64,000 nt of DNA from an uncultured Candidatus Saccharibacteria bacterium. GTDB taxonomy: Bacteria > Patescibacteriota > Minisyncoccia > Phycocordibacterales > PALSA-1337. A program made the position numbers and the translations under genes. Below are positions 1-62,808 of the stretch, piece after piece. The stretch lies in the NCBI GenBank assembly GCA_964406895.1, contig CAYOTK010000006.1:557-64556 (forward strand). Direction: 5' to 3'. Every line of letters begins with the position of its first letter. The first letter of the stretch is position 1. The notes below the pieces were generated by a model. The model had not been told where the DNA came from and did no database searches. It saw only the letters and a list, made by a program, of their open reading frames with translations.

Positions 1-47
1 CCGCCGTTCCCTCACGGGAACCGTGGGTTCGAATCCCACTCTCTCCG
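1..47 (+). tRNA. tRNA-Ser (class II, long variable arm), 3' portion only; window begins inside the gene
   Basis: Variable-arm hairpin gttccc-tcac-gggaac, T-arm GTGGGTTCGAATCCCAC, acceptor 3' strand TCTCTCC + discriminator G (matches the canonical tRNA-Ser 3' end ...CTCTCCG); CCA not encoded. Confidence 0.6.
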
Positions 48-17763: not shown

Positions 17764-18147
17764 TTATTTTTTTATTTTAAGGAAAACAAAAGAACCGATA
17801 GCACCGCCAATAAAATCATTAACTAGATCTTTCAAGGTATCAATGATGTATGGATTAGACCAAAGTGGAAAACCGGAAACATCTTCTACTATTTCGAATA
17901 ATTCCCAAAGCAAACCAAAAAACATTGTTCCGAGAATGATGTTTCGGAAAAGAGTTTTATTGGACATGTTTTTCGTCCTTCTGCCCATGATAGCAATACA
18001 AAGCAACGCGATGCCAAATCCGCCTGCAATATGCATACCAACATCAAAATACTGTATGTAATACCATCCATTAAACATAGCGAATATATGAGCAACCAAT
18101 ATAAGTATAAGAACTACAAGTGCTAAAACATATCTTTTTATTATCAT
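17764..18147 (-). CDS. small 4-TM membrane protein (127 aa), function unknown
   Basis: Four hydrophobic helices; no family-specific motif recognised. Confidence 0.4.
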   Translation of the reverse strand: MIIKRYVLALVVLILILVAHIFAMFNGWYYIQYFDVGMHIAGGFGIALLCIAIMGRRTKNMSNKTLFRNIILGTMFFGLLWELFEIVEDVSGFPLWSNPYIIDTLKDLVNDFIGGAIGSFVFLKIKK

Positions 18148-18171
18148 GACTTTATTATAACTTCTAATTAT

Positions 18172-18203
18172 CCAAATAGAAAACGCCCAACTAGAAGGCG
18201 TTC
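18172..18203 (-). terminator. rho-independent terminator on minus strand, 270 nt downstream of ndk
   Basis: aacgcc-N9-ggcgtt hairpin; on the minus strand it is followed by TTTCTATTT. Confidence 0.45.
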
Positions 18204-18473
18204 TCTATTGGTTGCATGTATAACAAACCTGGTAATCCAGGTGGGTGATCTCACATCAAACACCAAGGTGCTGACGAATTTGATCTCCCGTAAAATAAAT
18301 TTTGTAGGATTTATACAATGCAACCTGTACTAATTTTAATACTCTCTCAATCAAAAACAAGTGCAGAAAAAGTTGCGACACTTTTTGGAATTTTGGGCAA
18401 CGTTGACAAGGGAAAAGGAGAGGTAATAATGAAACACCAATGATTCGACAAGCTCATCATAAATAACCAATAA

Positions 18474-19082
18474 CTATTCGAGTATTCCGTCGAGGTTTAC
18501 ATCATACAAGATTTTCTCGGCAATAATACCGTAATCAATAATTTCATTATTCTTGAACCAGTGCTTAATCTCATCCTCTGCTTCTTTCACAGAGCCAGAC
18601 GCGTGCACCAAATTCCTGACCGCTCTACCATCACCGTCACTCATACTATAAGAATCAATGACATAATCTCCTCGAATAGTACCGACGTCAGACATGAGTG
18701 GTTCAGTGCCACCTGTGATCTTCCTAACCAACTGAACAGCATGTGCACCTTGCCAAATCATGATAATAATAGGACCCGAAGTCATATATTTTTCATTATT
18801 TTTAAGTATAATCTCTGTGATTTTCAACGGATCATTATACGGGGGTTTAAGTCCTTTATCCTCGTAGCCCTTTATGGTTTTCAAGCCTGTTTTGACTCGC
18901 CATTCTGGGTCTAAAGTATAGTGCTTCATTATTTGACTCGCAGTTGGCACAAGCATTTTTAATGCAACAAGCTTTAATCCTACCCTTTCATACCTCTGAA
19001 TGATTTCTCCGATCAAACTTCTCTGAATACCATCTGGTTTTATAATAACTAGTGTACGTTCTGTCTTGGGATGCTTTTTCAT
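18474..19082 (-). CDS. ndk: nucleoside diphosphate kinase-like protein with C-terminal extension
   Basis: TLVIIKPDGIQRSLIGEIIQRYERVGLKLVALKM (NDK N-terminal fold); 202 aa, longer than the canonical ~140 aa. Confidence 0.7.
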   Translation of the reverse strand: MKKHPKTERTLVIIKPDGIQRSLIGEIIQRYERVGLKLVALKMLVPTASQIMKHYTLDPEWRVKTGLKTIKGYEDKGLKPPYNDPLKITEIILKNNEKYMTSGPIIIMIWQGAHAVQLVRKITGGTEPLMSDVGTIRGDYVIDSYSMSDGDGRAVRNLVHASGSVKEAEDEIKHWFKNNEIIDYGIIAEKILYDVNLDGILE

Positions 19083-19099
19083 ATTATTAAAATTAATTT

Positions 19100-19870
19100 C
19101 TAAAGCACTGTTAATATTTCTGCATTACCCTTTGTAATCAAAATCGTATGCTCGAAATGTGCGCTCGGCTGACCATCTTCAGTCTTATAAGTATATCCAT
19201 CTTTATCCAAGAATATTTCTTTGCTACCGATATTAAACATAGGCTCGATTGCAATCACCAGTCCAGGACTAAGGATCATTCCTTTGTGAGCCTCACCGTA
19301 GTTTGGCACAAACGGATCTTCGTGTACACCATAACCTACACCATGCCCACACAATTCTTCTATCAAACCATAACCATTCGCCACGGCAATTCTTTCTATG
19401 GCCGAACTTATATCTCCGATTCTATTCCCTCCTTTTGCCTGCTTGATTCCTGCCATAAGTGCTGATTTTGTATCTTGAAGTAATTTACTCAATTCTTGCG
19501 AAACATTGCCAACTGGCAGAGTAATTGCCGCATCCGTGATGAGACCTTTATGCTTCAAACCCAAATCCAGACTGACTATATCTCCTTCTTTCAAAATCTT
19601 AACCTCTTCGTTTGGTATACCGTGCACTACTTCATCATTCACAGAAACACATAAAGCAGCTGGGTAAGGTTTTTTGGCACCCTTAGGTGTGTAATTCAAA
19701 AAAGCAGGTATATCACCACCCTCTTTTATGAGTTCTAGAGCATAATCATTAAGTTCTTTTGTACTAACACCAGGAATAACTTTCTTTGCAATTTCATTCA
19801 GGATATAAGCATGCCTTTTACCACCTTCTCTCAGAATAGCTATATCTTCTTTGGTCTTTAGTTTAACCAT
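19100..19870 (-). CDS. map: type I methionine aminopeptidase
   Basis: VHGIP ... DIVSLDLG ... GHGVGYGVHEDP ... metal-ligand motifs; secY-adk-map order. Confidence 0.9.
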   Translation of the reverse strand: MVKLKTKEDIAILREGGKRHAYILNEIAKKVIPGVSTKELNDYALELIKEGGDIPAFLNYTPKGAKKPYPAALCVSVNDEVVHGIPNEEVKILKEGDIVSLDLGLKHKGLITDAAITLPVGNVSQELSKLLQDTKSALMAGIKQAKGGNRIGDISSAIERIAVANGYGLIEELCGHGVGYGVHEDPFVPNYGEAHKGMILSPGLVIAIEPMFNIGSKEIFLDKDGYTYKTEDGQPSAHFEHTILITKGNAEILTVL

Positions 19871-19879
19871 ACTATGAGA

Positions 19880-20473
19880 CTACAACAAACCGACTTTTTG
19901 TACAATATCGGCATGAATGTCCTGCGGTTCTCTATTACCATCGACAACTATACAATTGTATCTTGGATTTTTCTTGAAATATTCGATCGTGGGCACTACT
20001 TCTGTTTTGTACCATTGCAAACGTTTTTTGATCTCTGATTCTTCATCGTCCAATCTCTTGCGTAAAAGAAGTCTTCTCAAAGATTCTTCTTCTGTAACAT
20101 CAATATCTATGACCCATATCTTGTGTATGCCATAAAATTCAAAAGCTGAATCTAGAACTTCTGCTTCTCGGATTTTCCTAGGCGTGCCGTCAAATATTAT
20201 ATGTTCATTGCCAGTATATCTTTCGACAAGTGCTCTAACCCACATATAAACAGCAATAAATTCTGGGAATAATCCCCCCGTATCATAAAATTTCTTGGCT
20301 AATTTCTCGGTGCTTGTATTACCTTGAATAAACTGCCGTATTTCTTGTCCTTCTTGTATACATAATTGCTTTATGTTTGGATCTTTGTTTTTGAGAACTT
20401 GAGAAAGTAGTTCTACTTGTGTTCCTTTTCCACTACCTGAACGTCCCGTGAAAATAAAAGATTGTTGTTGCAT
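19880..20473 (-). CDS. adk: adenylate kinase
   Basis: P-loop GRSGSGKGTQ, IFDGTPRKIREAEVLD; position between secY and map. Confidence 0.8.
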   Translation of the reverse strand: MQQQSFIFTGRSGSGKGTQVELLSQVLKNKDPNIKQLCIQEGQEIRQFIQGNTSTEKLAKKFYDTGGLFPEFIAVYMWVRALVERYTGNEHIIFDGTPRKIREAEVLDSAFEFYGIHKIWVIDIDVTEEESLRRLLLRKRLDDEESEIKKRLQWYKTEVVPTIEYFKKNPRYNCIVVDGNREPQDIHADIVQKVGLL

Positions 20474-20504
20474 GGTTATATTTTAACATAGAAATTATGC
20501 TCAG

Positions 20505-20860
20505 TGTTGAAAACACCGTTGTATTATGATTTTTGTTTGATTGCAAGGTCGCCATTCCAAATTGCAACCGTATTCGTCTTCGACAGTCCCCGTATTATTT
20601 TTGTAAAATCTCGAACTCCACTCATCATGTACGGGAATTTTCACAAAAGCCAGCTTCCAAGGCTTCAGCTGGCATTTGGAAAATTCAACCGTACATTCTT
20701 CGTGGATTATTCGAGATTTTACAAAAATAATACGGGGGCTGTTCTCGACAAATACGGGCAATTTGTTCATGGCTCAAATCGCATTGCAATTAAAAAAAAC
20801 ACATCACAACGGTGTTTTACCTTCGTGGATTATTTGAGATTTTATAAAACACTATTATGC
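20505..20860. repeat. MITE-like repeat-rich intergenic insertion between adk and secY
   Basis: Perfect 28-bp IR (20588-20615 vs 20710-20737), outer 13-bp IR aaaacaccgttgt / acaacggtgtttt (20510-20522 vs 20806-20818), 29-nt direct repeat 20698-20726 vs 20821-20849 (27/29), hairpin gccagct/agctggc 20649-20673. Confidence 0.65.
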
Positions 20861-24400: not shown

Positions 24401-24793
24401 TTACCAGATTCTGAACAAGACTTCTCCACCGACTTTGTTTTTCTTGGCTTCCATATCTGTCATCACTCCTTTTGGAGTAGACAAGAATGTATTGCCGAAA
24501 CCACTTCTGAAGACTCTTATATCACTGGATCTCTGATATATTCTCTTGGAAAGTTTCGAAATCCTCTCAACACCATTGACTCTGGCCATGTCACCTATAT
24601 ATGCAATACCAACTTCTAGGAATTTTGAATTACCTTCTGACTTCTTCTCGACTGAAGAAACATAACCTGCCTTCTTGAGAGCGTGAGCTATGTTTTCTAC
24701 GAATTTTGAATGAGAAACACGAATAGAAGGCTTGTTGGCGTCACTGCCATTCTTGATGCGAATTATGAAGTCTGAAACTGGGTCTGTTACCAT
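24401..24793 (-). CDS. rpsH: 30S ribosomal protein S8
   Basis: MVTDPVSDFIIRIKNG; 130 aa. Confidence 0.9.
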   Translation of the reverse strand: MVTDPVSDFIIRIKNGSDANKPSIRVSHSKFVENIAHALKKAGYVSSVEKKSEGNSKFLEVGIAYIGDMARVNGVERISKLSKRIYQRSSDIRVFRSGFGNTFLSTPKGVMTDMEAKKNKVGGEVLFRIW

Positions 24794-24972
24794 GATGATT
24801 TTTTTATACCTGGTATTGTGCCTTCGTTGGCAAATTCACGGAAACAAATACGGCAAAGATCGAAATCTCTCATATAACCGCGCTTCCTGCCGCATCTGAA
24901 ACAACGCCTAACGACGCGCGACTTGAATTTCGGCTTTTTCTGCGATCTTGCTATTACTGATGTTTTTGCCAT
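24787..24972 (-). CDS. rpsN: 30S ribosomal protein S14 type Z (zinc-binding)
   Basis: 61 aa, CFRCGRKRGYMRDFDLCRICFRE zinc ribbon. Confidence 0.9.
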   Translation of the reverse strand: MAKTSVIARSQKKPKFKSRVVRRCFRCGRKRGYMRDFDLCRICFREFANEGTIPGIKKSSW

Positions 24973-25075
24973 TTTATAACAATAAAACTTGGATTGGTCA
25001 GCTTTTTCGTCTTATGACTAAATGCTTCCAAACACTACCTTTAAGACACATATTTAATGAAACTTAAGGTAATGA

Positions 25076-25106
25076 TGATACTAGCAGATTGATATATTTT
25101 GGTCAA
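25076..25106 (-). promoter_or_regulatory. candidate sigma70-type promoter for rpsN and downstream spc genes
   Basis: On minus strand TTGACC (25106-25101), 17-nt spacer, TAGTAT (25083-25078), about 100 nt upstream of rpsN start. Confidence 0.35.
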
Positions 25107-25183
25107 TACTCCTCTCATTTATTATTACAAACGCAAAATCACATAATGCGCTATAATTCATGTATTAATAAATATCAAATCAT

Positions 25184-26131
25184 ATGAATCCAAAACCCAT
25201 AACAACACCAAAAGATTTCTTCCTAGATCTTACTTGGCTTATTGCTTTATACGCCAGTATTATAAGCCTCATCAACATATTGTTTGAGACCATCAATCGT
25301 TCTTTCCCTGATGTATTATCGTATCAAAACTACTATGTTGGAACATATGACACTTCTATTAGACTATCAATAGCCTGCCTTATCGTATTCTTCCCTGTCT
25401 ATATATTGATAACAAGATACGTAAGAAAAATTACAGAGAATGATCCGAGCAAGAAAGATATTCGCTCACACAAATGGTTTGTATACTTGACTGTATTTCT
25501 AACGAGCATAACCATGCTTGTCGACCTTATAGCACTCATAAATACATTCTTGAATGGAGAGATAACAACAAGATTTATCCTAAAAGTAATTGCCATATTG
25601 ATAGTGATGGGTGTGGCGTTTGGATATTACATGTTCGAACTCAGGAAAGAAGGCGTGAGTAATAAGATTGGAAATATATTTGTATCAATCTCAATATTGA
25701 TTACAGTAGGCACTCTTGTATATGCTTTCATAATCATAGGTTCTCCCAATCAAGAAAGACTGAGGAAAATAGATCAACAGAAAATATATGATCTACAAAA
25801 TATTCAGTACAAAATTCTAGATTATTGGCAGAAGCAGTCACGAATACCAGCAAGTTTAAATGTCTTGAATGATCCTATATATTCTTTCACCATCCCTCAT
25901 GATCCAGATTTTCGTTCAGGCAAGAATAGTTCTGACTATGTATATACAGTTATAGATGCAAACACCTTTGAATTATGTGCAGTATTCAATGCAAAAAGCA
26001 TCAACGACGCAGATAAGTATTCGAGCGCGTCTTATCCTGTCATGGCAAATGATGACAATTGGACACATGAACAAGGAATGAAGTGTTTCAAAAGAGTTTT
26101 GGACAAAACCAAATATCCACCGGTAAAATAA
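25184..26131 (+). CDS. polytopic membrane protein (5-6 TM) with C-terminal soluble domain, function unknown
   Basis: 315 aa; hydrophobic helices through residue ~190; precedes the HlyD-FtsX-ABC cluster on the same strand. Confidence 0.5.
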   Translation: MNPKPITTPKDFFLDLTWLIALYASIISLINILFETINRSFPDVLSYQNYYVGTYDTSIRLSIACLIVFFPVYILITRYVRKITENDPSKKDIRSHKWFVYLTVFLTSITMLVDLIALINTFLNGEITTRFILKVIAILIVMGVAFGYYMFELRKEGVSNKIGNIFVSISILITVGTLVYAFIIIGSPNQERLRKIDQQKIYDLQNIQYKILDYWQKQSRIPASLNVLNDPIYSFTIPHDPDFRSGKNSSDYVYTVIDANTFELCAVFNAKSINDADKYSSASYPVMANDDNWTHEQGMKCFKRVLDKTKYPPVK

Positions 26132-26172
26132 AGTGACGTTTGTGCTATAATTGAATTATAATAAATAAAAAA

Positions 26173-27687
26173 ATGAAGAAATCTTTCATAAGACGTCCTT
26201 TCGTATATGTTCCTATTGTCGTAGTTATTATTTTAATAATATTTGTTGTCGTATTTAGAGGTTCTAGCACAAAATATGAGACAACTATCGCCAAAAGAGG
26301 CAATTTCAAACTCGAAGTCTCCGCGTCCGGTCGCGTGGTCGCGAAGGATCGTGCCGATCTCGGTTTCGAACAAAACGGCAAAATCAGCGCAATATACGCC
26401 AAGGTCGGTGATTCAGTGAAAGTAGGCTCTCCGATAGCAAGCATAGAAAATGCAGATCTCAAAGCCGAACTTGCACAAAAATCCGCAAATCTTGCAAAAG
26501 AACAAGCCAAACTTGCTTCCCTATTACAAGGCACAAGACCAGAACAATTAGTCATAGACAAACAAAATTTTGCCGATTCTTCAAAGGCAATGATAATAGC
26601 AATGCGTTCAGCATACGCAATAGCAGAAGGCGCGATGCTTAACAATGCCGATACAATGTTTACGAATGGCAACAGTGTCAATCCAACTCTGAAAATAAAC
26701 GCGCAAAGTTACAACGAACAAAGAGATATGGAAGGTAGAAGACAGCAGATTACAGAAAGACTCAAGGCATGGAAAGATGCCATGACCAATATTACAGACA
26801 CAACAAATACCAAACAAATAGACAATGCTAGAGTTGCAGCAGAATCAGCATTTACTCTCATGAAGACATTCTCTGACAAATTGAGTTATATTACCAACAA
26901 TATATATGAGGGTAATTCGGGACTGAGTCAAAGCACTATAGATTCATACAAAAATTCCGCTAATGTATTGGGCACGAATATAGCAAGTGCATTAGAAACA
27001 TATCAAACCGCCTCGACCGCATGGAACAAATACAAAGCCGGCCTAGATCTTTCTCTTGCAGGAGCAACAAAAGAAGATATAGTCGCAGAGCAAGCACAAG
27101 TACAATCTGCAATGGCGGATGTAGAGGCAGCAAGATCAAAACTTGCCAAATCAATAATATTCGCTCCATTCGATGGCATAATAACAAAAGCCGATGGCAA
27201 AATTGGCGAAATCATTTCACCCAATACTTCTCTATTCTCTGTCATGAGCACATCTACTTTCGAAATAGAGAGTTATGTACCAGAAGTACATATAGCCAAT
27301 ATCAAAGCTGGCGACAAGGCTTCTGTGATTCTGGACGCATATGGAGAAGATGTAATATTCAATGCTCTAGTTTACTCCGTTGATCCTGCAGAAACAATAA
27401 AAGACGGCGTATCAACCTACAAAGTAACTCTTGTATTCAAAGATAACGATCCTCGTATCAAGTCAGGAATGACCGCTAGTGTCAAAATAACAACCTTAGA
27501 AAAAAATGACACGATTGTTGTACCACAAGGCTTCATAAAAATGATTGATGGTAAGAAAACAGTAACGATTCTGAATGGCAAAAACAAAACCACAGTACCT
27601 GTAGTAACAGACGGTTTATCAGCTTTAGGTCAATCAGAAATAGTACAGGGCCTCGCGGGTGGCGAAACCCTAATATTAGAAAAATAA
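26173..27687 (+). CDS. HlyD/MacA-family periplasmic adaptor (membrane fusion protein) of an ABC efflux system
   Basis: N-terminal TM anchor, biotin-lipoyl-like hairpin ISAIYAKVGDSVKVGSPIASIE, long coiled-coil (A/Q/K/E-rich), C-terminal beta-barrel region; 504 aa. Confidence 0.7.
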   Translation: MKKSFIRRPFVYVPIVVVIILIIFVVVFRGSSTKYETTIAKRGNFKLEVSASGRVVAKDRADLGFEQNGKISAIYAKVGDSVKVGSPIASIENADLKAELAQKSANLAKEQAKLASLLQGTRPEQLVIDKQNFADSSKAMIIAMRSAYAIAEGAMLNNADTMFTNGNSVNPTLKINAQSYNEQRDMEGRRQQITERLKAWKDAMTNITDTTNTKQIDNARVAAESAFTLMKTFSDKLSYITNNIYEGNSGLSQSTIDSYKNSANVLGTNIASALETYQTASTAWNKYKAGLDLSLAGATKEDIVAEQAQVQSAMADVEAARSKLAKSIIFAPFDGIITKADGKIGEIISPNTSLFSVMSTSTFEIESYVPEVHIANIKAGDKASVILDAYGEDVIFNALVYSVDPAETIKDGVSTYKVTLVFKDNDPRIKSGMTASVKITTLEKNDTIVVPQGFIKMIDGKKTVTILNGKNKTTVPVVTDGLSALGQSEIVQGLAGGETLILEK

Positions 27688-27690
27688 AAT

Positions 27691-28947
27691 ATGTTTTCTG
27701 CTCTCAATCTCAGAATTGGATTATTCCTAGCGATAAGACAAATCAAGAGGTCTAGCAAATGGACCAATGGTCTTATTATTTTCGTCATGATACTTACCTT
27801 CTTGAATCTAGTTATCATTTCTGGGATTCTAGTTGGACTTATTCAAGGAGCTGTTGATTCTGTTAGGAAACAATATACAAGTGACGTCATCATATCTACT
27901 CTCAAAGACAAAACGTTCATTGAATATAGTCCGGAAATATTGAAAATACTAGAGAAAGTACCGGAAGTACAAAACGTCAGTCCGAGATATATAGGAGGTG
28001 CAGTATTAGAAGCTAATTACAAAGAAAAAATCAACGATACAGACAAACCCAATACAGCAAATGCACAAATCGTCGGCATAAATCCAGAAGCAGAAGATGC
28101 AATTACAAATCTCAGTAAATTCGTCATAGAAGGTTCATATCTACAACCGAATGATTATGACCAAATACTTCTTGGTTCATATCTCTTGAAGAAATATTTA
28201 CCCGTCGACTCTCCAGGATTTAGTGCTCTCTATAACGTAGAAGTAGGTAGTAAAATAAGAATCAAAATTAACGGCGTCAATCGTGAAGTAACAGTCAAAG
28301 GCATCATAAAAACCAAAACTGATGAGGTCAGTATGCGCGCTTTCATGGTTGATACACAGCTACGAAGTATCATAGGCAGGAATGATTTCAACGTTTCAGA
28401 GATTTCAGTCAAACTCAAAGACGGTGTAGACCCTGCGCATGTACGAGATTATTTGAAAACAAACGGTATTGATAAATTCGCAAAAGTCCAAACCTATACA
28501 GATGCCGAACCCAAGTTCATCAAAGACATGATGAATACCTTTGCTCTTCTCGGTAATCTTATCAGTTCGATAGGCCTTGCTGTGGCTTCTATCACAATAT
28601 TCATTGTTATATTCATTAACGCTCTTACACGCAGGAAATATATTGGCATATTGAAAGGCATAGGAATAAGCGGTGAAGCCATAGAAGTTTCTTATATTTT
28701 CCAATCAATATTTTATTCGGTTACAGGATCTATTATTGGCTTTGTCGTGTTGTATGCAGTGCTCCAGCCAACAATTGCTGCTCACCCTATAAACTTCCCA
28801 TTCAGTGATGGCATTCTAGTCGCACCTCTTTCTGGCACATTTTTCCGCATTGCCCTTCTTGTCATTGCTACCGTCATTGCAGGTTATATTCCTGCCAGAA
28901 TGATTGTCAGAAAAAATACCCTAGATTCCATACTAGGTAGAAAATAA
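27691..28947 (+). CDS. ABC transporter permease, FtsX/MacB-like
   Basis: N-terminal TM, large extracytoplasmic domain, 3 C-terminal TM helices; 418 aa; start is 4 nt after the adaptor gene. Confidence 0.75.
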   Translation: MFSALNLRIGLFLAIRQIKRSSKWTNGLIIFVMILTFLNLVIISGILVGLIQGAVDSVRKQYTSDVIISTLKDKTFIEYSPEILKILEKVPEVQNVSPRYIGGAVLEANYKEKINDTDKPNTANAQIVGINPEAEDAITNLSKFVIEGSYLQPNDYDQILLGSYLLKKYLPVDSPGFSALYNVEVGSKIRIKINGVNREVTVKGIIKTKTDEVSMRAFMVDTQLRSIIGRNDFNVSEISVKLKDGVDPAHVRDYLKTNGIDKFAKVQTYTDAEPKFIKDMMNTFALLGNLISSIGLAVASITIFIVIFINALTRRKYIGILKGIGISGEAIEVSYIFQSIFYSVTGSIIGFVVLYAVLQPTIAAHPINFPFSDGILVAPLSGTFFRIALLVIATVIAGYIPARMIVRKNTLDSILGRK

Positions 28948-28951
28948 AAAT

Positions 28952-29632
28952 ATGATTAAAACAAAAAATCTAAAAAAATCATTCCAGAATGGAAACATTC
29001 AAACAGAAATACTCAAAGGTATTGATTTCGAGGTATCCGCAGGTGAATTCATCGCTATCATGGGAAGATCTGGAGCCGGAAAAAGTACTTTCATGTATCA
29101 AATCAGCTTATTGGATGAACCAACTAGTGGCGAAGTTATCATAGACGGAACCAATACACACAACATGTCCAATGAAGAAAAAACTTCTTTCCGACTAACT
29201 AAACTCGGCTACGTATTCCAGGACTATGCTCTCATACCAGAATTAACAGCCCTAGAAAATGTTGCCCTGCCCCTACTCATGCAGAGTGCTCCGAAAGAAA
29301 AAGCCTTTCGAGTTGCTACCGAGGCTCTTACAAAAGTTGGTCTTGGTGATCATTTATCGCAATTGCCTAGCCAACTTTCTGGTGGTGAACAACAAAGAGT
29401 CAGTATATCGAGAGCTATCGCTCACAAACCAGAAATCCTTTTCGCCGATGAGCCCACTGCAAATCTAGATAATGAGTCATCGAAAACTGTCATGGCTATT
29501 TTCGATCAGCTTCATAAAGAAGGTCAAACTATAATCATGGTCACTCATGAAGAGCAATATGCAAAAATGTCAGAGAAAATCATCAAACTTGATGATGGAA
29601 GAATAGTTGAAGAGATACGAAATAAGAAATAA
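28952..29632 (+). CDS. ABC transporter ATP-binding protein (MacB/LolD-type)
   Basis: Walker A GRSGAGKST, ABC signature LSGGEQQRVSISRA, Walker B ILFADEPTANLD, H-loop VTHE. Confidence 0.9.
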   Translation: MIKTKNLKKSFQNGNIQTEILKGIDFEVSAGEFIAIMGRSGAGKSTFMYQISLLDEPTSGEVIIDGTNTHNMSNEEKTSFRLTKLGYVFQDYALIPELTALENVALPLLMQSAPKEKAFRVATEALTKVGLGDHLSQLPSQLSGGEQQRVSISRAIAHKPEILFADEPTANLDNESSKTVMAIFDQLHKEGQTIIMVTHEEQYAKMSEKIIKLDDGRIVEEIRNKK

Positions 29633-29721
29633 AAACATTGACAGTAAGCGATTTTTATTCTAATGTATACACAGAACGGTTGCCGAACCGTCCGGATGGT
29701 ATGAAGTATTTGTGGACATGA

Positions 29722-30459
29722 TTGTCTACAGATGGCCGCAAGCCCATACTCCGAAAAGAGGCATTTGACATTATGACGCTACCTGAAATGTTGGACGCGA
29801 TTCCGCCCGAGTGGTTGGAGCGGTACGAGAAGACTCGAAAGGTCAAGCCGTACGAACTCCTCGCGGAGTACAAGAAGGTTGAGGGAAAAAACTACGGACT
29901 GAGAATGGTGTTCAAATTTTTGATTGGACTGGTATCAGCAGTATCGGTTTGCCTCCTCTTTCAACACAACAAATTGCATGATGAAAGGTCTGGCACAGAG
30001 ATAGTCAACCTGGCCCTCGTGCTGTTTATTGGTCTTCCCATTTGGTGGTGGATGAACCGCAGCGCCAGCAAGGAAGTTGCTCGATTGGAGTTGATCCACC
30101 AACTGGATAAAATCGGCGACGACATTCAGGCCTTGATCGACCTCGTCGGTGGTGAGAGGTGGTTAAACGATCATGGGATCAAGGGGGCCATGATCCGACT
30201 AGCCGGAGAAGCCGTCACGCAGGAAAAATTTATAGTAAAAATCGCCAAAAAAGTTGGGGACGGTGATCTCGAACTCGTCTACAAAATTCAAACTTGCATA
30301 GGCAATCTCAATTCGAAGGAGAAGGCCTACGAGAGAGCGATCAACCTGATCTGCTGTTTCGTTAATCCACCTTACGATTTCGAAAGGGCAAAAGAGTTGG
30401 CAAGAGAAGCCCTGCAGATCGGCGAACCCGACATCGCCGAAGAACAACCTCTCACCTGA
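29722..30459 (+). CDS. hypothetical membrane protein encoded in a GC-enriched (~50% GC) segment
   Basis: 245 aa, two central TM helices, compositionally atypical; own terminator downstream. Confidence 0.4.
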   Translation: MSTDGRKPILRKEAFDIMTLPEMLDAIPPEWLERYEKTRKVKPYELLAEYKKVEGKNYGLRMVFKFLIGLVSAVSVCLLFQHNKLHDERSGTEIVNLALVLFIGLPIWWWMNRSASKEVARLELIHQLDKIGDDIQALIDLVGGERWLNDHGIKGAMIRLAGEAVTQEKFIVKIAKKVGDGDLELVYKIQTCIGNLNSKEKAYERAINLICCFVNPPYDFERAKELAREALQIGEPDIAEEQPLT

Positions 30460-30483
30460 AAAGGTGCGAGGTAAGAACACAAA

Positions 30484-30516
30484 CCGGGAGGCTCACACCT
30501 CCCGCGTTTTTTTATT
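30484..30516 (+). terminator. rho-independent terminator
   Basis: cgggagg-ctcaca-cctcccg hairpin followed by TTTTTTTATTT. Confidence 0.7.
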
Positions 30517-30563
30517 TGAAATTATTATTTTTATGAAATTATTACAAAATTATTATAAGAATA

Positions 30564-31763
30564 TCAAATGTTCTTCCTAACAGTTCTTGAACTAAGATAG
30601 AAAAATACAAGACCAACAACAACGACAACACTCGCGCCAAGTAGGGCTACACTGGACCCATAAACTTGCCATACATAACCACCAACAATACCGGCAATCA
30701 TAGAACCAAAACCAATAGAGGCGTTGTAGAGACCATAAGCGGAGCCGCGGTCATATTCTGGGACAGTATGAGCAATGAAAGATCGCTGGGTAGCATCTGT
30801 ACAAGCAGAAAATACGCCCATAATGATGAATGAAAGCGCGAGAGATATTGCCGACGCAGACATGGCAATGGCAATATACGAAATAATAAGTATGACGTAA
30901 CCATATGCCAAAACTCTAGTTATACCAATACGATCACTGGTTTTACCTGCAAGATATGAAAAGCTAGAATAAGACAAACTATACAACATATAGAAAAGCG
31001 GGACTGAAGCAATAACAAGACCAATAGAAGTAGTTTTGAGTAGAAGAACAGCTGATGGCAAACTACCGATAGACAGAACGAAAATAGCGATCAAATAATA
31101 TTTGAATGCTAGAGACGAACGACTGAAATTGTTGAGATTAAATATTTTGGCACCGTGTTCATTCTTCATAGTCACAACTTCTTTGACAAAAAATATTGTT
31201 ACGAAAGAGATGATGCCTAGCACGAAAGCTGTCATGAAAAGCAAAGTCCAATTGTTGGGAGCCCGAGTAAGGATAATATATGCAACCAATGGACCCAGAA
31301 TACCACCTATAGTATCCATAGTTCTGTGATACCCGAAGGAGCGACCCATTTCATTTTCGGGAGAAGAAACAGAGATAATGACATCTCTAGGCGCTTCACG
31401 AACACCCTTACCTACCCTGTCCAAAATCCTAAGACCCAAAACTCCAGATACACTACTGGCCAAAATATAAAAAGGTCTTACAGTTACAGATAATCCATAC
31501 CCTAGGAATATAAAAGGCCTTCTTTTGGCCAACTTGTCAGAAAGTCTACCTGAATAAATCTTCAAGATATTAGATGCGCCATCCGCAATACCCTCAACAA
31601 GTCCCAAAGAAGCAGCGCCTGATTTCAATACCGAGGTAAAAAAAGCGGGAAAGGAAGATAGGATTATTTCATTGGAAAAGTCATTGAAGAAACTAGTGAG
31701 ACCGAGAATGAATATGTTTTTTTCTAGTCCAAATATTTTCTTTTTGCCGTCTTGCATAAGCAT
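30564..31763 (-). CDS. MFS transporter
   Basis: 12 predicted TM helices, 399 aa, conserved MFS loop between TM2 and TM3. Confidence 0.7.
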   Translation of the reverse strand: MLMQDGKKKIFGLEKNIFILGLTSFFNDFSNEIILSSFPAFFTSVLKSGAASLGLVEGIADGASNILKIYSGRLSDKLAKRRPFIFLGYGLSVTVRPFYILASSVSGVLGLRILDRVGKGVREAPRDVIISVSSPENEMGRSFGYHRTMDTIGGILGPLVAYIILTRAPNNWTLLFMTAFVLGIISFVTIFFVKEVVTMKNEHGAKIFNLNNFSRSSLAFKYYLIAIFVLSIGSLPSAVLLLKTTSIGLVIASVPLFYMLYSLSYSSFSYLAGKTSDRIGITRVLAYGYVILIISYIAIAMSASAISLALSFIIMGVFSACTDATQRSFIAHTVPEYDRGSAYGLYNASIGFGSMIAGIVGGYVWQVYGSSVALLGASVVVVVGLVFFYLSSRTVRKNI

Positions 31764-31765
31764 GA

Positions 31766-33496
31766 TTATAACACGCCGTATTTGCTGAGTCCTGTCAGAG
31801 CGCGAACAAGCTTGATCTCAGCATAAGAATAATTCGGGCCCAGTCTATCTTTGACTGGAAAAAGTAGTATTTTACCCTTCTCGTCATATATCTCTTGCAA
31901 AATAGATTTGATCTTCGCGAAATGAGCGTGACTTATCTCTGATTTCAAATATTTGATATCGACATTATAACCATCATGAACCAACTGATCTATATGACTT
32001 ATTATTGTTTCTCTATTCAATTTTCTTGCTTTTGCTATTTCTTCCAAGCTTTTCTTGTCCTGAATAAGAAGCGCCGTCTTCTCGTATGTGTTTATCTTTT
32101 TCTTTTTTTCTTTCTTAATCTTGGGTGATATTTTATATAGCGTTTCTCTTATTTCGAAGCTGTGTAATGGAGCAATTTTTGCTAAGAATTGTTTCTGAAC
32201 TCTAGATATTTCTTCACGGCCAATATTCTTGAGTCGTTGTTCAGCCATATCTGATTGTTTCCTCAATAATATATCGTGTTCGAGAATATCAGGATGAACC
32301 TTGAGAGCGTGTTCATTCAGGCCTAGAATTTTGAGGCCATTGAAATTGCGCACGCGAGACAATGCTACATAACCCATTCCAAGTTCAAATGATTTCGACA
32401 AGTCAACTTCGACCGCATCTAGACTCATTCCTTGGCTCTTATGAACTGTTATGGCCCAAGCCAATCGCAACGGATACTGATTGATCTCTGCAATGATCCT
32501 ACCGTTGTCTTCTATTACCCAACTCGCTCGCTCTATTCTGATTTGTTCGCCTTTGGCATTTTGTATTACTGGATCTATTCCCCATCCGCAACTAACAACC
32601 ACACCGAGTGTGCCGTTCACATAACCTTTATCAAAATTGTTCTTAACACACATTACTCTCGCGCCTTTTTTCAATCTGAGATTTTGAGGAGCCAAGCAGG
32701 TTTTCTTCAGCGTTTCTACTATGGCCTTTTTGCCTTTCGATGTCATTTCGTAAACTGCGTAATTGCCTTCTATCTTGTCTATTTCTTGATCGTTGATACC
32801 ATCTACATCTGCATTATGAGTATATAAAGATGTTGGTTGCACTGAATCATCAATTTTTGCGTTAAATCTTGTTTGTATTTGTCTTAAAGATTCCTCACTC
32901 AGAGATCCGCTACGAATTTCATTCAAAACATGAATAGAAATATCATCCTTTTGTCTGTGTTGTTCGGACAAATAACAAATTACAAAATTAGCTTCTTGCC
33001 ACGCCTTGGATCGATATGCAAAATACGCCTCGGGTTCTCCCGCTCTTCTCACAGGCGGTAATTGGAAAAAATCGCCACATAAAACAATTTGCACACCACC
33101 AAATGGCTTATCTTCACTCATATCTTTGCGTCTTATTTTGCGCATGATCTTGTCGAGTAAATCTAAACGATAATGATGCAACATGGATATTTCATCTATT
33201 ATGAGGACATGCACGCTCTGAACTTTTTTTGTTACGTATTTCTTTTCCAAAAGTTCTTCTAGTTCGTATTCATTCATGTCGTCTTTTACTCCCATTCCTG
33301 ACCATGAATGTATCGTTACACCGCCCATATGAGTAGCTGCAATGCCTGTAGAAGCGGTTATGCCTATTGCTACGTCATGTTCCCTAAGGAATTTGATGTA
33401 TTCATTGACTACGAAGGTTTTGCCACTGCCTGCTGGACCAGTGATAAACACATTCTTACCCATCTTCAATATATCTAATGCGTCTTTTTGAGTCAT
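31766..33496 (-). CDS. Pif1/RecD-family SF1 5'-3' ATP-dependent DNA helicase
   Basis: Walker A FITGPAGSGKTFV, Pif1 signature region GGVTIHSWSGMG, Walker B LIIDEISML, QLPPV motif; C-terminal HTH-like extension; 576 aa. Confidence 0.75.
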   Translation of the reverse strand: MTQKDALDILKMGKNVFITGPAGSGKTFVVNEYIKFLREHDVAIGITASTGIAATHMGGVTIHSWSGMGVKDDMNEYELEELLEKKYVTKKVQSVHVLIIDEISMLHHYRLDLLDKIMRKIRRKDMSEDKPFGGVQIVLCGDFFQLPPVRRAGEPEAYFAYRSKAWQEANFVICYLSEQHRQKDDISIHVLNEIRSGSLSEESLRQIQTRFNAKIDDSVQPTSLYTHNADVDGINDQEIDKIEGNYAVYEMTSKGKKAIVETLKKTCLAPQNLRLKKGARVMCVKNNFDKGYVNGTLGVVVSCGWGIDPVIQNAKGEQIRIERASWVIEDNGRIIAEINQYPLRLAWAITVHKSQGMSLDAVEVDLSKSFELGMGYVALSRVRNFNGLKILGLNEHALKVHPDILEHDILLRKQSDMAEQRLKNIGREEISRVQKQFLAKIAPLHSFEIRETLYKISPKIKKEKKKKINTYEKTALLIQDKKSLEEIAKARKLNRETIISHIDQLVHDGYNVDIKYLKSEISHAHFAKIKSILQEIYDEKGKILLFPVKDRLGPNYSYAEIKLVRALTGLSKYGVL

Positions 33497-33688
33497 GAAT
33501 GAATTCTACACTACTTCATAAGAAGAACACATAACATTTTTCGGATAATGAGAGGATAAACTGAGGATTATGTGTATTGACACCACAAACAATAGGAGTA
33601 ATCTTTCAGTTAGAACAGCATAGCAAAACAAACCCGTTCCGGTTTCAAAACTGGAACAGAAAGGCATCTCGAGAGAGATGAAAAATGT

Positions 33689-34309
33689 ATGAACGACAGA
33701 ACACCTGTTGGCCTAAGATTGATTCTGAATCGACACACCGGTGGTGGGACGGTCGGCGGAAATGTCGGCGGAGGATCCCCGACGGCAATACAGCCGAATC
33801 AATTCGGACTGCCGGATGATTTGGCGAACGCATTACTTCACCCGTTCTGGGATCTCAAGGAAAAAACCAGAGGTCCTTTCGTGGTCGGAGTAGTGGCCGA
33901 CTACGCCACCAGGTTGGTGCGACTGATAAACGCGGAAACGCAGATCGAGTCGGCCGTAAAGGTGGTCCTCGAGCAGTTCAATGGCAAACTTCGGGTGATC
34001 AGTTTTGCCATCGACCTTGAAAAGCACTGCTTCACCAGCATTACGATCAGGGTGGAACTCAACGGCCAGCCCCTGTATCCAGAAGCGCCGAGACCGCCCA
34101 ATCTGAGTGGCGACATCCGGCAAGCGGTTGCCGATGTTCTTCAGCCTCTCGGGATCACGCCACCACACATCATCATTCCGTCCGACTATTCGGAATCGCA
34201 TGAGCCCCAAGAAATCCAGAAGGGTGAACCGACGAGGCTCTCACCCCCTACTCAGCCAAGGGTAGCCGAAGTCGAAGCCGACACAGACGAGAGTGGGACT
34301 CCGAGTTAG
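33689..34309 (+). CDS. orphan hypothetical protein in a strongly GC-rich (~58% GC) island
   Basis: 206 aa ORF, G-rich N-terminus; flanked by its own terminator at 34361-34390. Confidence 0.35.
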   Translation: MNDRTPVGLRLILNRHTGGGTVGGNVGGGSPTAIQPNQFGLPDDLANALLHPFWDLKEKTRGPFVVGVVADYATRLVRLINAETQIESAVKVVLEQFNGKLRVISFAIDLEKHCFTSITIRVELNGQPLYPEAPRPPNLSGDIRQAVADVLQPLGITPPHIIIPSDYSESHEPQEIQKGEPTRLSPPTQPRVAEVEADTDESGTPS

Positions 34310-34360
34310 ACCATACCCTTTCCCCACAGTTAGCGGCAACTATGCCGACCCAATGCAAAC

Positions 34361-34390
34361 GCGCCACCCCCGTGGCGCGACCTTTTTTTA
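34361..34390 (+). terminator. rho-independent terminator of the GC-rich orphan gene
   Basis: gcgccac-cccc-gtggcgc hairpin followed by gaccTTTTTTTA. Confidence 0.7.
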
Positions 34391-34441
34391 TGCAAACAAA
34401 AAACATATCACCAAAGACAAGGAAAAAATGTGATCAAAATA

Positions 34442-34993
34442 TTATTTGAGATTAGTCCTACTCAAAGGCAAACCGAGATATTCCAAGAAAGCGAGTGTAT
34501 TATCTTTTTTATTTGAACTTGTAACTATAGTAACAGCAAAACCAAAAACATCCTTCAAATCTTCGTCGGAAGTTTCAGCAAATATTGTGTGTTCCTTGAT
34601 ACCGAATGTGAAATTACCCATAGCATCAACAGATTTCCTATTAATACCTCTGAAGTCTTTTGTACGAGGAAGAGCTACGTGTATGAGACGATCTAGGAAT
34701 TCACACATTCTCTTGCCCCTCAATGTGATTTGGTAACCAATAGCGTCACCTGTGCGTGTCTTGAATGTTGCAATGGCTTTCTTTGCAGAACGTACTGCAG
34801 GCTTCTGACCTGTGATCTTAGCTAGTCTATCAGCAATAAGATCAATTTTTCTCTTGTCTTTTATTGAACCGAAACCGTTAGATATAACAACTTTAACAAG
34901 CTTTGGGGCTTGCATTGGATTCTTGATAGAAAGCTTGTCTTTCAAAGCCTTGAATGAATCTCTATTCAATTCGTAAACTGTTTTGTAATTCAT
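34442..34993 (-). CDS. rplE: 50S ribosomal protein L5
   Basis: KNPMQAPKLVKVVISNGFG; 183 aa. Confidence 0.9.
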   Translation of the reverse strand: MNYKTVYELNRDSFKALKDKLSIKNPMQAPKLVKVVISNGFGSIKDKRKIDLIADRLAKITGQKPAVRSAKKAIATFKTRTGDAIGYQITLRGKRMCEFLDRLIHVALPRTKDFRGINRKSVDAMGNFTFGIKEHTIFAETSDEDLKDVFGFAVTIVTSSNKKDNTLAFLEYLGLPLSRTNLK

Positions 34994-36125: not shown

Positions 36126-37274
36126 CTATAAGCCATGCCTAGCGTCAAGACGACCCAGGACGTTTTCTCTCAATAAATTGGTTATTTTGTCTGCATCAGA
36201 CTTGGAAACCCCTTGTATCACAACCGCGTTTGATATTTCGAAATTTTTATTACTAGAGAAGTTTGGCACAGAAGTAGCGTTTTCTATTCTAACCTCTGCA
36301 ATTCCGAAAATTTTGCTTATTATATCCTGTTTGATCGTAACATCTTGAATAGTACTATATGGCATATGTTTCTCTGATAAAGAAAGCATACCGCTCCTGA
36401 AATATATATTATCGGACATGAATGAGAATTTGTAATTCTGCTTCCAGAGAAATAAGCCTATAATTCTAGCTGTAGTAGTTAACAATATTATCCCCAAGAA
36501 AACATACAATCCTCCGAAATCACCATTGTTATTGCTGACCAATATGCTTGTAGACACAATCACAGATATGGTCAGGAAACCCGCCAATATTTGGATAAGC
36601 GATATCATAAACCATTTACCAGTCAATGGATAAACATCACTTGATATTTCCTCTGATAAATTTATCTCAATATTCTTGGGTTTTTGTTCATTTGTTGTAG
36701 CTGTAGTATCACTATGCATCGTGGACATGGTTCCGCCCCTACTCACACCCACGACCTTATTTAACAAATAATCTTTAAGACCATTAGCAACATCTATATC
36801 AACCCCATCTATATGAGCAGCTATGCCAGAAGAAAAAGTTGCACTAGCAATATGAACATCACAAAGACCCATCATTCTATCTAGGATATCTTGATCCACA
36901 TAAACATCTTGAATTTTTTGCCATTGAACGTGTATTTCCGCAGGTGCAAAGACCCCCTTCTTAATAGTAAGGAAGTTGTCATCAGCTGAATAGTAATATC
37001 TTTTGATATATTCTCGGACGTATATAATATATGGCAAAATCACTATCAAAAAACCAATAATAAACAGTACTCCCGCCAAAACAAGCAGAAGTGGCACACT
37101 GAATTTCTTGCTTATGAAAATACCGACATAAACAGTCGAAGCGGTTGCCGACAATATAAAACCGAACATGAAAGCACTTATTGCTTTTTCTATGATCTTT
37201 TTCCAAAACTTTTTTGGACTAAGTGGGAAATTCTTTTGTAAATCACTAACTATATTTTGATTATTCATATACAT
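36126..37274 (-). CDS. membrane protein with tandem bacterial PH (bPH_2/YdbT-like) domains, inserted between rpmC and rplP
   Basis: 382 aa; two copies of the TM-hairpin-plus-PH-like module (e.g. FLTIKKGVFAPAEIHVQWQKIQDVYVDQDILDRMMGLCDVHIASA). Family assignment is from pattern recognition, not a search. Confidence 0.5.
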   Translation of the reverse strand: MYMNNQNIVSDLQKNFPLSPKKFWKKIIEKAISAFMFGFILSATASTVYVGIFISKKFSVPLLLVLAGVLFIIGFLIVILPYIIYVREYIKRYYYSADDNFLTIKKGVFAPAEIHVQWQKIQDVYVDQDILDRMMGLCDVHIASATFSSGIAAHIDGVDIDVANGLKDYLLNKVVGVSRGGTMSTMHSDTTATTNEQKPKNIEINLSEEISSDVYPLTGKWFMISLIQILAGFLTISVIVSTSILVSNNNGDFGGLYVFLGIILLTTTARIIGLFLWKQNYKFSFMSDNIYFRSGMLSLSEKHMPYSTIQDVTIKQDIISKIFGIAEVRIENATSVPNFSSNKNFEISNAVVIQGVSKSDADKITNLLRENVLGRLDARHGL

Positions 37275-39192: not shown

Positions 39193-39374
39193 TGGTAATT
39201 GGTTATTAGTTCTTGGTAATTAGTAATCTCACAACAATAATATTATCTATATAAATATGTGTTGTTTTTGGAATAAAATAAGCTCTAACGAGCTAAGTAG
39301 CATACTAACAGAGCCGTATTTCGAAGTCAAGGCGTTATTATTGTTCCATCATTGAATATTAGAAAGTTTATGAG

Positions 39375-39540
39375 AAAACTCACGAATTGTATGATTTGAG
39401 GACCATTTCGCAAAGCACCATGTACTATTAGTTTGAATGATCACTCTCAGATGGTGCTGCGAATAGACAGCCCCATCGACTCTTCCCCTATTGTCGATGG
39501 GGCTGATCGTGGTCCTCAAATCATACAATTCGTGAGTTTT
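39375..39540. repeat. 166-bp element bounded by perfect 31-bp inverted repeats with internal 13-bp stem-loop, inserted between rpsS and rplB
   Basis: aaaactcacgaattgtatgatttgaggacca (39375-39405) is exactly reverse-complemented at 39510-39540; inner cagccccatcgac / gtcgatggggctg (39468-39480 vs 39493-39505). Confidence 0.7.
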
Positions 39541-39565
39541 CTTGATTATTTAAGTATAAAAATTA

Positions 39566-39591
39566 GGAGGGGTAATGCGCATTACCCCTCC
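39566..39591 (+). promoter_or_regulatory. 26-nt perfect palindrome sequestering an SD-like sequence and an ATG (ggaggggtaATGcgcattacccctcc), with an 11-codon mini-ORF
   Basis: Exact self-complementarity read directly; AGGAGG then ATG 6 nt later; ORF MRITPPPDCKS*. Confidence 0.3.
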
Positions 39592-40021
39592 CCCTGATTG
39601 CAAAAGCTAAGGGACTCAGGCTGTGTCCCGCGCCCATAGATATTGTTAAATGTGCTTTGAAGTTGATCACCGTCCGATACGATAACCAAATCACCTGCAT
39701 TTGGCGCTATGTGTATGTGTAAGCACGTTTGGAACGGAGCATGCTATTTATTACGGAGTTGCAACTTTTCCGTCTTCATTCTGCACGTCGCTCCAAAAAC
39801 ACCGACACATCCACCGTGTCCTTTGGGCCCATGACACAACAGATGATATTTGGAATATAGCATTTTGCAAAGATAAATCAAATCGATAAATTGTAATATA
39901 GAAATATTGATGCTTGGAAAAAACACAAAAAGTCCTGCATTTTGTATTTTTCCTTATTGTTACCAATATTATTTATGAAACACGAGTTGCATCGACGTTA
40001 TTTTTATACTAGATTATATGC

Positions 40022-40423
40022 ATGACCATAGACACAAAATCTCACTCAACTAAAATAAAATCACCATATAATATATTCTATATACCGCATATTTATTGGT
40101 TTGGCTTAACTACCAGAATATGTCTATATGCTTTAGCACTATTTTACTTTATATCCTACAACTATAAGATAGTTGTCAGTGCACACAATACATCCTCATC
40201 AAATTCATTAATTATAATGATTGTTACAATTGTTGGGATTATAGGAATGTTTGCTGGATTATTTTTTATTGAAAAATCTAGACGTTACATAATACTATCT
40301 TTTTGGGCGGCATTTGGTCTACTAAGTATTATCGTGTATTTAACTTTATTGACTGTTTTACCGATATTGTCCGGGTATATATCAATTTCATTATTGTTTG
40401 GACCAGCCTTTCGCGGTTATTAG
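40022..40423 (+). CDS. small hydrophobic membrane protein (133 aa), opposite strand to the r-protein genes
   Basis: Three or four predicted TM helices; AT-rich; no recognisable motif. Confidence 0.35.
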   Translation: MTIDTKSHSTKIKSPYNIFYIPHIYWFGLTTRICLYALALFYFISYNYKIVVSAHNTSSSNSLIIMIVTIVGIIGMFAGLFFIEKSRRYIILSFWAAFGLLSIIVYLTLLTVLPILSGYISISLLFGPAFRGY

Positions 40424-40433
40424 ATTTAAACAT

Positions 40434-42461: not shown

Positions 42462-43067
42462 TTATCCAACGATCTCCACTAATGTTCCCCTTCTTCCTGG
42501 AACTGCACCAGAAAGATATATTACATTCTCATCTTGATCAATATGCACAACTTTGAGATTTCTTACAGTGATCCTGTCACTACCCATTCTTCCCGCCATG
42601 CGCATACCTACAGGAACACGAGTACGCAAACCGCCACCAATAGAACCTGGCTCGCGCTCTGAGTGTTTCTGACCGTGAGAGCGAGGGCCTCCACCGAAAC
42701 CGTGTCTCTTGACGACACCTTGGAAGCCCTTACCCTTCGAAACGGCACTGACTGTAACCATGTCACCAATTGTAAACTGAGAAATAGATACAGAATCACC
42801 AACTTTCAGGGTAGGATTCGCTACTCTGATCTCTTTCAATGAAGCAAATGAACCTAGATCCTTGAAATGTCCCTTCTGTGCTTTGTTGATGCGATTTGGA
42901 TTGCGGCTACCTTCACCGATCTGTACAGCCTCATAACCATCACGAGTGACAGTTTTGACATCTGTAATGACATTATTCCTGATCGATATTGCTGTCACAG
43001 GCACAGCTGTTCCGGCAGCATCGAAAATCTGTGTCATATTAAGTTTTCTTCCCAAAATGAATTTCAT
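42462..43067 (-). CDS. rplC: 50S ribosomal protein L3
   Basis: MKFILGRKLNMTQIFDAAGTAVPVTAI; 201 aa. Confidence 0.9.
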   Translation of the reverse strand: MKFILGRKLNMTQIFDAAGTAVPVTAISIRNNVITDVKTVTRDGYEAVQIGEGSRNPNRINKAQKGHFKDLGSFASLKEIRVANPTLKVGDSVSISQFTIGDMVTVSAVSKGKGFQGVVKRHGFGGGPRSHGQKHSEREPGSIGGGLRTRVPVGMRMAGRMGSDRITVRNLKVVHIDQDENVIYLSGAVPGRRGTLVEIVG

Positions 43068-43083
43068 GGTATTTCTTTATTTC

Positions 43084-62314: not shown

Positions 62315-62347
62315 GTGATAGGAGTATAACAGAAAACATACGAGTAA

Positions 62348-62374
62348 GGGCGGGGTGACTTCGTCACCCCGCCC
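62348..62374. other. GC-rich 12-bp stem hairpin with UUCG tetraloop (gggcggggtgac-ttcg-gtcaccccgccc)
   Basis: Perfect self-complementarity read directly; lies between recJ start and the upstream GC-rich gene. Confidence 0.6.
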
Positions 62375-62379
62375 AAAAG

Positions 62380-62772: not shown

Positions 62773-62808
62773 AATTGGCGACACCCGAGGGTGTCTCGGA
62801 AAACAGAC

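Follow-up and report, generated by a model that had tools for sequence, protein, structure and literature searches.

In a 64,000-nucleotide stretch of contig CAYOTK010000006.1 (the window), rplE (ribosomal protein L5) and rpsN (S14) of the spc operon are separated by a spacer of 9,469 bp (24973-34441) that contains eight genes, as located by Pfam matches and open reading frame (ORF) coordinates. Rather than an inserted element, this block is probably the set of genes that locally fills a permissive junction standing open across the lineage. Few prokaryotic gene orders are as well conserved as that of the S10-spc-alpha cluster, which marker-gene phylogenies and the binning of uncultured lineages use as their backbone. 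On the minus strand of the window, rplE ends an upstream module, S19...L24-L5 (beyond L5 lie L24, L14, S17, L29, L16, S3, L22 and S19), and rpsN heads a downstream module, S14-S8-L6-L18-S5-L15-SecY. The 9.5 kb between the two genes had been reported in an earlier note made from the sequence of the window, and is confirmed by the Pfam placement of both genes and by independent assemblies that repeat the layout. The cluster was remodelled long ago and throughout the clade, and most of the cargo genes are ordinary.

When one genome per species was scanned with an L5 query, at least 80 loci of Paceibacteria/Parcubacteria were recovered (L5 identity 56-83%), in which every spacing from L4 to SecY was measured, the denominators varying by junction. 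Two junctions are open: L5-S14, with a median gap of 2008 bp and more than 300 bp in 48 of 55 species, and L2-S19, with a median gap of 1688 bp and more than 300 bp in 37 of 44. All other junctions have medians below 50 bp; gaps greater than 300 bp were found at L16-L29 (5 of 71), L24-L5 (1 of 78) and L15-SecY (1 of 45), and at none of the 12 others. The L5-S14 gap ranges from 0.1 to more than 10 kb, with 40 gaps exceeding 1 kb; in another eight loci, S14 is absent from the 10 kb next to L5. Literature searches found no described interruption between L5 and S14 in the candidate phyla radiation (CPR).

The L5-S14 gaps contain 273 ORFs in 194 sequence clusters, and their contents differ by clade. 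Recurrent occupants are an extracytoplasmic function (ECF) sigma factor (13 species), a DUF5667 candidate anti-sigma factor (10 species), an fn3 surface protein (nine species), the Pif1 helicase (11 species other than that of the window) and MazF-like toxins, and the genes found once include RecA, serine hydroxymethyltransferase, pyruvate kinase, Mur ligases, thymidylate synthase (ThyA), FolD, TruD, SSB, FtsK and type IV pilus genes. Such a profile is the one expected of ordinary chromosomal genes brought in by rearrangement, and not of a mobile-element hotspot. Because related subclades have occupants in common (L059, L060 and L063, with L062 also carrying Pif1; L008, L010 and L012; relatives and surveyed loci are designated by L numbers), turnover is evidently slow. 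The contigs of L011, L017, L040, L048, L064, L073 and others end less than a few hundred bases past L5, which fits strain-level heterogeneity that breaks assemblies at the junction.

The downstream module has conserved sequences of its own. The earlier note had proposed a new internal promoter for it at 25076-25106; such a site exists with shifted coordinates (25106-25078), and its conservation across species supports the proposal: TTGACN-16..18-TANNNT is found upstream of S14 in 50 of 55 related species, and a 43-species alignment gives the consensus TTGAC(T/C)...TCTGCTAGTATC, with the T, A and T positions of the -10 element invariant. The promoter claim depends on this conservation because a scan of the block was not enriched over shuffles (34 sites found, 31 expected), the site in the window being one weak consensus match among many. 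At the other side of the junction, a terminator-like hairpin followed by a T-run is present no more than 110 nt past L5 in 41 of 80 species, versus 2 of 237 coding control windows. In the window, the hairpin at 34379-34360 is shared by the orphan gene orf206 and L5 and is kept in L098; with its T-run it is a candidate terminator of orf206, and a weaker candidate for the S19...L5 module. With L5-S14 open in most species and the promoter followed by a conserved leader, the survey favours the remodelled core operon that was one of two alternatives in the earlier note.

The leader, of about 100 nt, has the core G(A/U)UUGG-A-AGC, a stem variable in sequence and length, and GCU-(A/G)A-CCAAUC, with a U-rich tract after it, and is preceded by a P1 hairpin that covaries (ACCUY...RAGG). 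The core motif was found in 46 of 55 species, in one copy per locus and in every case upstream of S14; the leader occupies this position in L007-L064, L074, L081 and L087. RNAalifold gave the same core of nine pairs, with no compensatory changes in it, the core being invariant; what supports the structure is therefore the distal stem, which varies, and 42 of 43 leader sequences fold to the core individually, with z-scores all below -2 (median -3.8). Rfam produced no family at E<=10 beyond noise in 24700-25300, and none at gathering thresholds in the window. The leader is a candidate ribosomal protein regulatory RNA, in which the stem and U-tract could work by attenuation; where the stem abuts the ATG, as it does in some species, it could occlude translation initiation. 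A likeness of GAAGCAC...GCUAAC to the 500 region of 16S rRNA was dismissed as coincidence, the bases after GGAAGC being unconserved in the alignment.

Comparison with close relatives, which were found among JGI, ENA and Logan assemblies by exact-protein look-ups of homologues of HlyD and of both orphans (mem245 and orf206), indicates how the block of the window has been inherited. An identical order of the eight genes, S8-(S14)-DUF5671-HlyD-FtsX-ABC-orphan-MFS-Pif1-orphan-L5 (MFS, major facilitator superfamily), is present in L081-L099, from the near-identical L087 (ribosomal proteins 98-100% identical, the rpsN product 100%), which is colinear with the window over 18.3 kb, to L099 (HlyD 66% identical, ribosomal proteins approximately 85%). 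Because independent assemblies share this order, even where HlyD is only 66% identical, it is an ancestral layout of the genus and not a chimera. The earlier note had named the same gene order in related genomes as a finding that would speak against an insertion, and at the genus level this is what was found.

Between the window and L087, nucleotide identity is 98-100% in the left-hand cargo and over most of the ribosomal sequence (94-97% in a few 200-nt windows), and 60-90% over a tract of approximately 7.5 kb that begins within FtsX, at about 27.8 kb, and ends within L14, at about 35.4 kb. The synonymous substitution rate (dS) increases from approximately 0.03 (HlyD, bPH) to 0.4-3.2 within the tract, where the ratio of nonsynonymous to synonymous rates (dN/dS) is 0.02-0.08 for FtsX, ABC, MFS, Pif1, L5 and L24, and the tract of the window is about equidistant from all other strains. 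Because dS is as high as 3.2 while dN/dS is low and the order is unchanged, the tract from FtsX to L14 appears to be a homologous import, with the signature of replacement by a divergent allele having the same gene order. The coordinates of the features are collected in Table 1.

Table 1. Features of the window at 24787-34993, and the L2-S19 gap
Feature	Position	Strand	Evidence
rpsN (S14, 61-aa zinc-ribbon type)	24787-24972	-	Pfam Ribosomal_S14, 78 bits
Predicted structured rpsN 5' leader	24973-25070	-	P1 hairpin 25070-25037, core hairpin 25033-24992, then U-rich tract up to ATG
Putative internal promoter of S14 module	25078-25106	-	TTGACC, 17 nt, TAGTAT, TG upstream; consensus scan
DUF5671 polytopic membrane protein, first gene of + strand unit	25184-26131	+	Pfam DUF5671, 76 bits
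HlyD/RND_mfp/YknX-like membrane-fusion adaptor	26173-27687	+	Pfam HlyD_3, HlyD_D23; TIGR01730 152 bits (cutoff 94.9)
MacB_PCD+FtsX permease	27691-28947	+	PF12704 53.8 bits, PF02687 38.7 bits, each above cutoff
ABC ATPase	28952-29632	+	Pfam ABC_tran 119.5 bits
mem245, GC-rich orphan with two transmembrane (TM) segments	29773-30459	+	GC 0.49, GC at third codon positions (GC3) 0.60
GC-rich hairpin between convergent mem245 and MFS	30485-30504	both	Terminator scan, both strands
MFS transporter	30564-31763	-	Pfam MFS_1 135 bits; dN/dS 0.045
Pif1-family superfamily 1B (SF1B) helicase with C-terminal HTH_40	31766-33496	-	PF05970 141.7 bits (cutoff 25.9), PF21530 Pif1_2B_dom 37.5 bits (cutoff 23.9), HTH_40
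orf206, GC-rich soluble orphan	33689-34309	+	GC 0.56, GC3 0.62
GC-rich hairpin between orf206 (+) and L5 (-)	34360-34379	both	Terminator scan
rplE (L5)	34442-34993	-	Pfam Ribosomal_L5 + L5_C
L2-S19 gap	39193-40433 (1.24 kb)

The description of the cargo in the earlier note (a membrane protein, an exporter, a GC-rich membrane ORF, an MFS transporter, a Pif1 helicase and an orphan) is right by Pfam, except for the strand of the last gene. The adaptor, permease and ATPase genes form one tight operon; the spacing of 4 nt given for it holds between FtsX and ABC, and that between HlyD and FtsX is 3 nt. Their products constitute a MacB-type (type VII) ABC exporter, with a MacB periplasmic core, an FtsX permease of four TM segments, a cognate ATPase and an HlyD/RND_mfp adaptor. 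The eight-gene block contains no gene for an outer-membrane (TolC-like) channel, and the closest NCBIfam models to the ATPase are LolD, FtsE and MacB-type, every exporter equivalog scoring far below its cutoff. There are 713 HlyD homologues at E<=1e-30, and the best matches listed include many Paceibacteria/Patescibacteria records. An operon in which HlyD, FtsX and ABC follow each other as in the window (47% HlyD identity) is located among sugar metabolism genes at an unrelated chromosomal site of a Taylorbacteria genome (L100); because of this operon and the hundreds of homologues, with many Paceibacteria/Patescibacteria records among the best ones listed, the exporter is evidently native to the lineage. 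Homologues of the DUF5671 protein follow L5 in L004 and L016, with a partial match at the extreme end of L009, and its C-terminus contains a hypervariable patch (25886-26085, 71% nucleotide identity to L087 versus 98-99% around it) in which about 40 residues are replaced.

On the opposite strand, the helicase has the PIF1 core and 2B domain of the Pif1 SF1B family, both above thresholds, and is under strong purifying selection (dN/dS 0.034). In each of the 11 other species that have it in the gap, its homologue is the neighbour after L5, always on the same strand as L5. The MFS gene starts 2 nt past the Pif1 stop codon, so the two are probably co-transcribed, and the hairpin between MFS and mem245 is likely a bidirectional terminator.

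The orphans mem245 and orf206 differ from the host (GC3 approximately 0.33) by being GC-rich in every strain examined. Among 5.8 billion proteins, mem245 has nine homologues and orf206 has seven, and every homologue for which the context was looked up occupies the same slot; in L098, the mem245 slot contains a protein of the same architecture with undetectable sequence similarity. The dN/dS ratios are 0.30 (mem245) and 0.37 (orf206), both below 1, versus 0.02-0.05 for the conserved neighbours. The earlier note had placed orf206, as an orphan of about 58% GC, on the ribosomal protein strand; its homologues, its dN/dS and a downstream terminator on the + strand assign it to the + strand instead. 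The longest ORF of mem245 starts with TTG at 29722, and the ATG at 29773 agrees with the homologues. Each orphan has promoter-like hexamers, a candidate promoter of its own being found at 29638-29666 for mem245 (TTGACA, 17 nt, TAATGT) and at 33577-33604 for orf206 (TTGACA, 16 nt, TAATCT), and each has a GC-rich terminator of its own, as the earlier note had stated (hairpins 30485-30504 and 34360-34379 in the terminator scan). The alleles of both are mosaic, with the variation of mem245 densest in the TM/loop region. No Pfam, NCBIfam or PADLOC match was obtained for mem245, and no PADLOC match for orf206; the predicted structure of mem245 is all-helical with low confidence (predicted local distance difference test score, pLDDT, 66). 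Both are real, fast-evolving genes, and it is a possibility that the two, each retained at its own position in the junction, constitute a new pair of conflict or surface-interaction genes.

A horizontally acquired island or integrative element that landed in the rplE-rpsN spacer, the other alternative of the earlier note, is very improbable. The block is large, with accessory-type genes on mixed strands, but none of its eight proteins has an integrase, recombinase or transposase domain (Pfam, NCBIfam), the direct and inverted repeats that were looked for are short, at chance level and absent from the borders, and no tRNA or tmRNA gene lies within 12 kb. Composition likewise argues against insertion: the GC3 of six of the eight genes (0.32-0.36) is like that of the ribosomal genes and the tetranucleotide z is below 0.6 across the block, whereas mem245 and orf206, each equipped with a promoter-like site and a terminator, deviate (GC3 approximately 0.6) as foreign genes might. 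Several related contigs end soon past L5, as they would at strain-variable sites, but the order is constant in every close relative recovered, and native homologues of the exporter operon occur at other places in the lineage. Even less credible, to the point that it can practically be dismissed, is an assembly chimera at 24973 or 34441, which the earlier note had named as a possible refutation: apart from the unusual gene order nothing suggests it, and both junctions recur in independent assemblies from other projects and assemblers (L081, L087 from JGI, L098 from Logan), L087 being colinear over its 18.3 kb.

It is also unlikely, although less so than an island, that the block or part of it (Pif1 with the orphans) serves in anti-phage defence or conflict as a module not yet recognised, in a hotspot resembling a defence island. 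The junction does vary between species, with MazF-type toxins in some relatives, but most gap genes in relatives are housekeeping genes, and PADLOC-DB v2 gave no specific match, Pif1 and the ABC ATPase matching only generic RecD-like/SF1B and P-loop models and the orphans matching none. The suggestion in the earlier note of a defence module around Pif1 does not agree with these generic matches, nor with a helicase that is strongly conserved and recurs beside L5, as expected of a housekeeping enzyme. For mem245 and orf206, which evolve 6-20 times faster than their neighbours, have few homologues and mosaic alleles and, in mem245, vary most in the TM/loop segment, dN/dS below 1 points the other way; the defence reading survives, with low probability, for these two genes.

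Several points weigh against the permissive junction that is favoured here. Rearrangement of ordinary genes leaves the GC bias of mem245 and orf206 in all strains examined unexplained, and this bias fits a foreign origin or special selection. For the minus strand, the T-tail of the hairpin at 34360-34379 is poor, and transcription may therefore continue in part into Pif1. Roles as promoter, terminator and leader are predicted from sequence conservation only. With a collection of one genome per species, the pace of turnover is seen only through shared occupants, and since the Pfam overview of the gap genes comprises the 25 most frequent families, the singletons may include a few integrases or transposases.

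With a permissive junction as the basis, the following model is proposed. In the Paceibacteria (Parcubacteria/Taylorbacteria-like) clade, the S10-spc cluster is cut into ...L4-L23-L2, S19...L24-L5 and S14-S8-L6...SecY. The S19...L5 module would often end in an intrinsic terminator, and the S14 module would restart from its own conserved sigma-70-type promoter and structured leader. Chromosomal rearrangements could then place ordinary genes in the insulated junction with ribosomal protein expression intact; transcriptional insulation would thus be the reason why the junction tolerates cargo, and this tolerance the reason why different clades carry different occupants. In the genus of the window, the occupants form three units (DUF5671-exporter-mem245 on the + strand, Pif1-MFS on the minus strand, and orf206), inherited vertically as a set and reshuffled by homologous recombination between divergent alleles. 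We advance more tentatively, as a conceivable extension, that the three modules are insulated from each other, that the two junctions are long-lived sites of gene flux in reduced genomes, and that the rpsN-rpsH leader is an undescribed autoregulatory RNA that binds S8, or some other product of the module, and replaces control of the Escherichia coli type on rplE.

If a large CPR clade keeps two junctions open, annotators should consider kilobases of unrelated genes inside the cluster normal, and the open junctions would show where transcriptional units and their regulation were redrawn in reduced genomes. The leader offers a candidate ribosomal protein leader RNA in a phylum from which none is known to have been described. 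More generally, interruption of a core operon need not mean a mobile or defence island.

Other parts of the cluster were also observed. In the survey, there is a conserved promoter upstream of S19 (CTTGACTTCAAA...GGCTCTGTTAACATG), together with a small hairpin, GAGCUC; within the L2-S19 gap of the window, the promoter is at approximately 39330-39300 on the minus strand (CTTGACTTCnAAA...GGCTCTGTTAGTATG), and a small GAGCUC...GAGCU hairpin lies upstream of S19. The same gap contains, at approximately 39370-39540, approximately 100 nt framed by the arms of a perfect inverted repeat (about 31 nt, GAAAACTCACGAATTGTATGATTTGAGGACC and its complement) and including an inner GC-rich hairpin (CAGCCCCATCGAC...GTCGATGGGGCTG); this unit could be an element resembling a miniature inverted-repeat transposable element (MITE) or a structured RNA. 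L16 is parted from L29 in the window by a gene for a 382-aa membrane protein with two bPH_2 domains (36126-37274, minus strand), which is present in the nearest relatives (L081-L088 and L098) and absent from L091-L093. Directly upstream of L4 in L081 is a 999-aa protein without a Pfam match (17945-20630, minus strand), and the cluster may also be interrupted upstream of L4 in some strains; ORFs at 42462-43458 of the window match L3 and S10 as annotated in L091, by size and position only. At the end of the window (62001-64000), the GC content is 0.49-0.53 versus 0.39 overall and the tetranucleotide z is 3.7, the maximum of the window.

Among known systems, MacAB-TolC and the YknXYZ exporters of Gram-positive bacteria share with the exporter of the window an adaptor, a MacB_PCD/FtsX permease and a separate ATPase in one operon, whereas the operon described here is preceded by a DUF5671 membrane protein and has no channel gene in the block. 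The helicase has the PIF1 core and 2B domain well above Pfam thresholds in common with bacterial Pif1-family SF1B helicases, and differs from the others by its C-terminal HTH_40 and by lying immediately past rplE, in the orientation of that gene, in some twelve Paceibacteria species; its function is a predicted one.

In E. coli, S8 represses the spc operon via a hairpin on the rplE start that is described as having an invariant internal loop, two bulged adenosines and a variable distal stem, and this mRNA element is restricted to Gammaproteobacteria (PMC3616713). The leader of the Paceibacteria resembles this site in being a hairpin with a near-invariant loop containing two unpaired adenosines and a variable distal stem, at the head of a unit that encodes S8, but it is located upstream of rpsN and not on rplE. 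Its AAG/CU core matches A595-A596-G597/C643-U644 of helix 21 (h21) of E. coli 16S rRNA, and GG-A-AGC/GCU-AA-CC has an unpaired A, an A-U pair and a G-C pair in the order of E. coli h21; relative to the same h21, bulged bases equivalent to U641/A642 between C643 and A640 are absent, the two unpaired adenosines of the leader being on the other side of the C-U pair, and for this reason mimicry of the S8 target is put forward as a lead and not as a result.

In cyanobacteria and plastids, rps14 is found outside the ribosomal cluster. The spc layout of E. coli is rplN-rplX-rplE-rpsN-rpsH... (PMC3616713). The Paceibacteria cluster has its genes and their internal order in common with E. coli spc, and a break beside S14 in common with lineage-specific breaks of the cluster. 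Unlike in such breaks, S14 remains the head of the downstream module, the size of the gap varies clade-wide, there is a second open junction at L2-S19, and each downstream module has a conserved promoter of its own.

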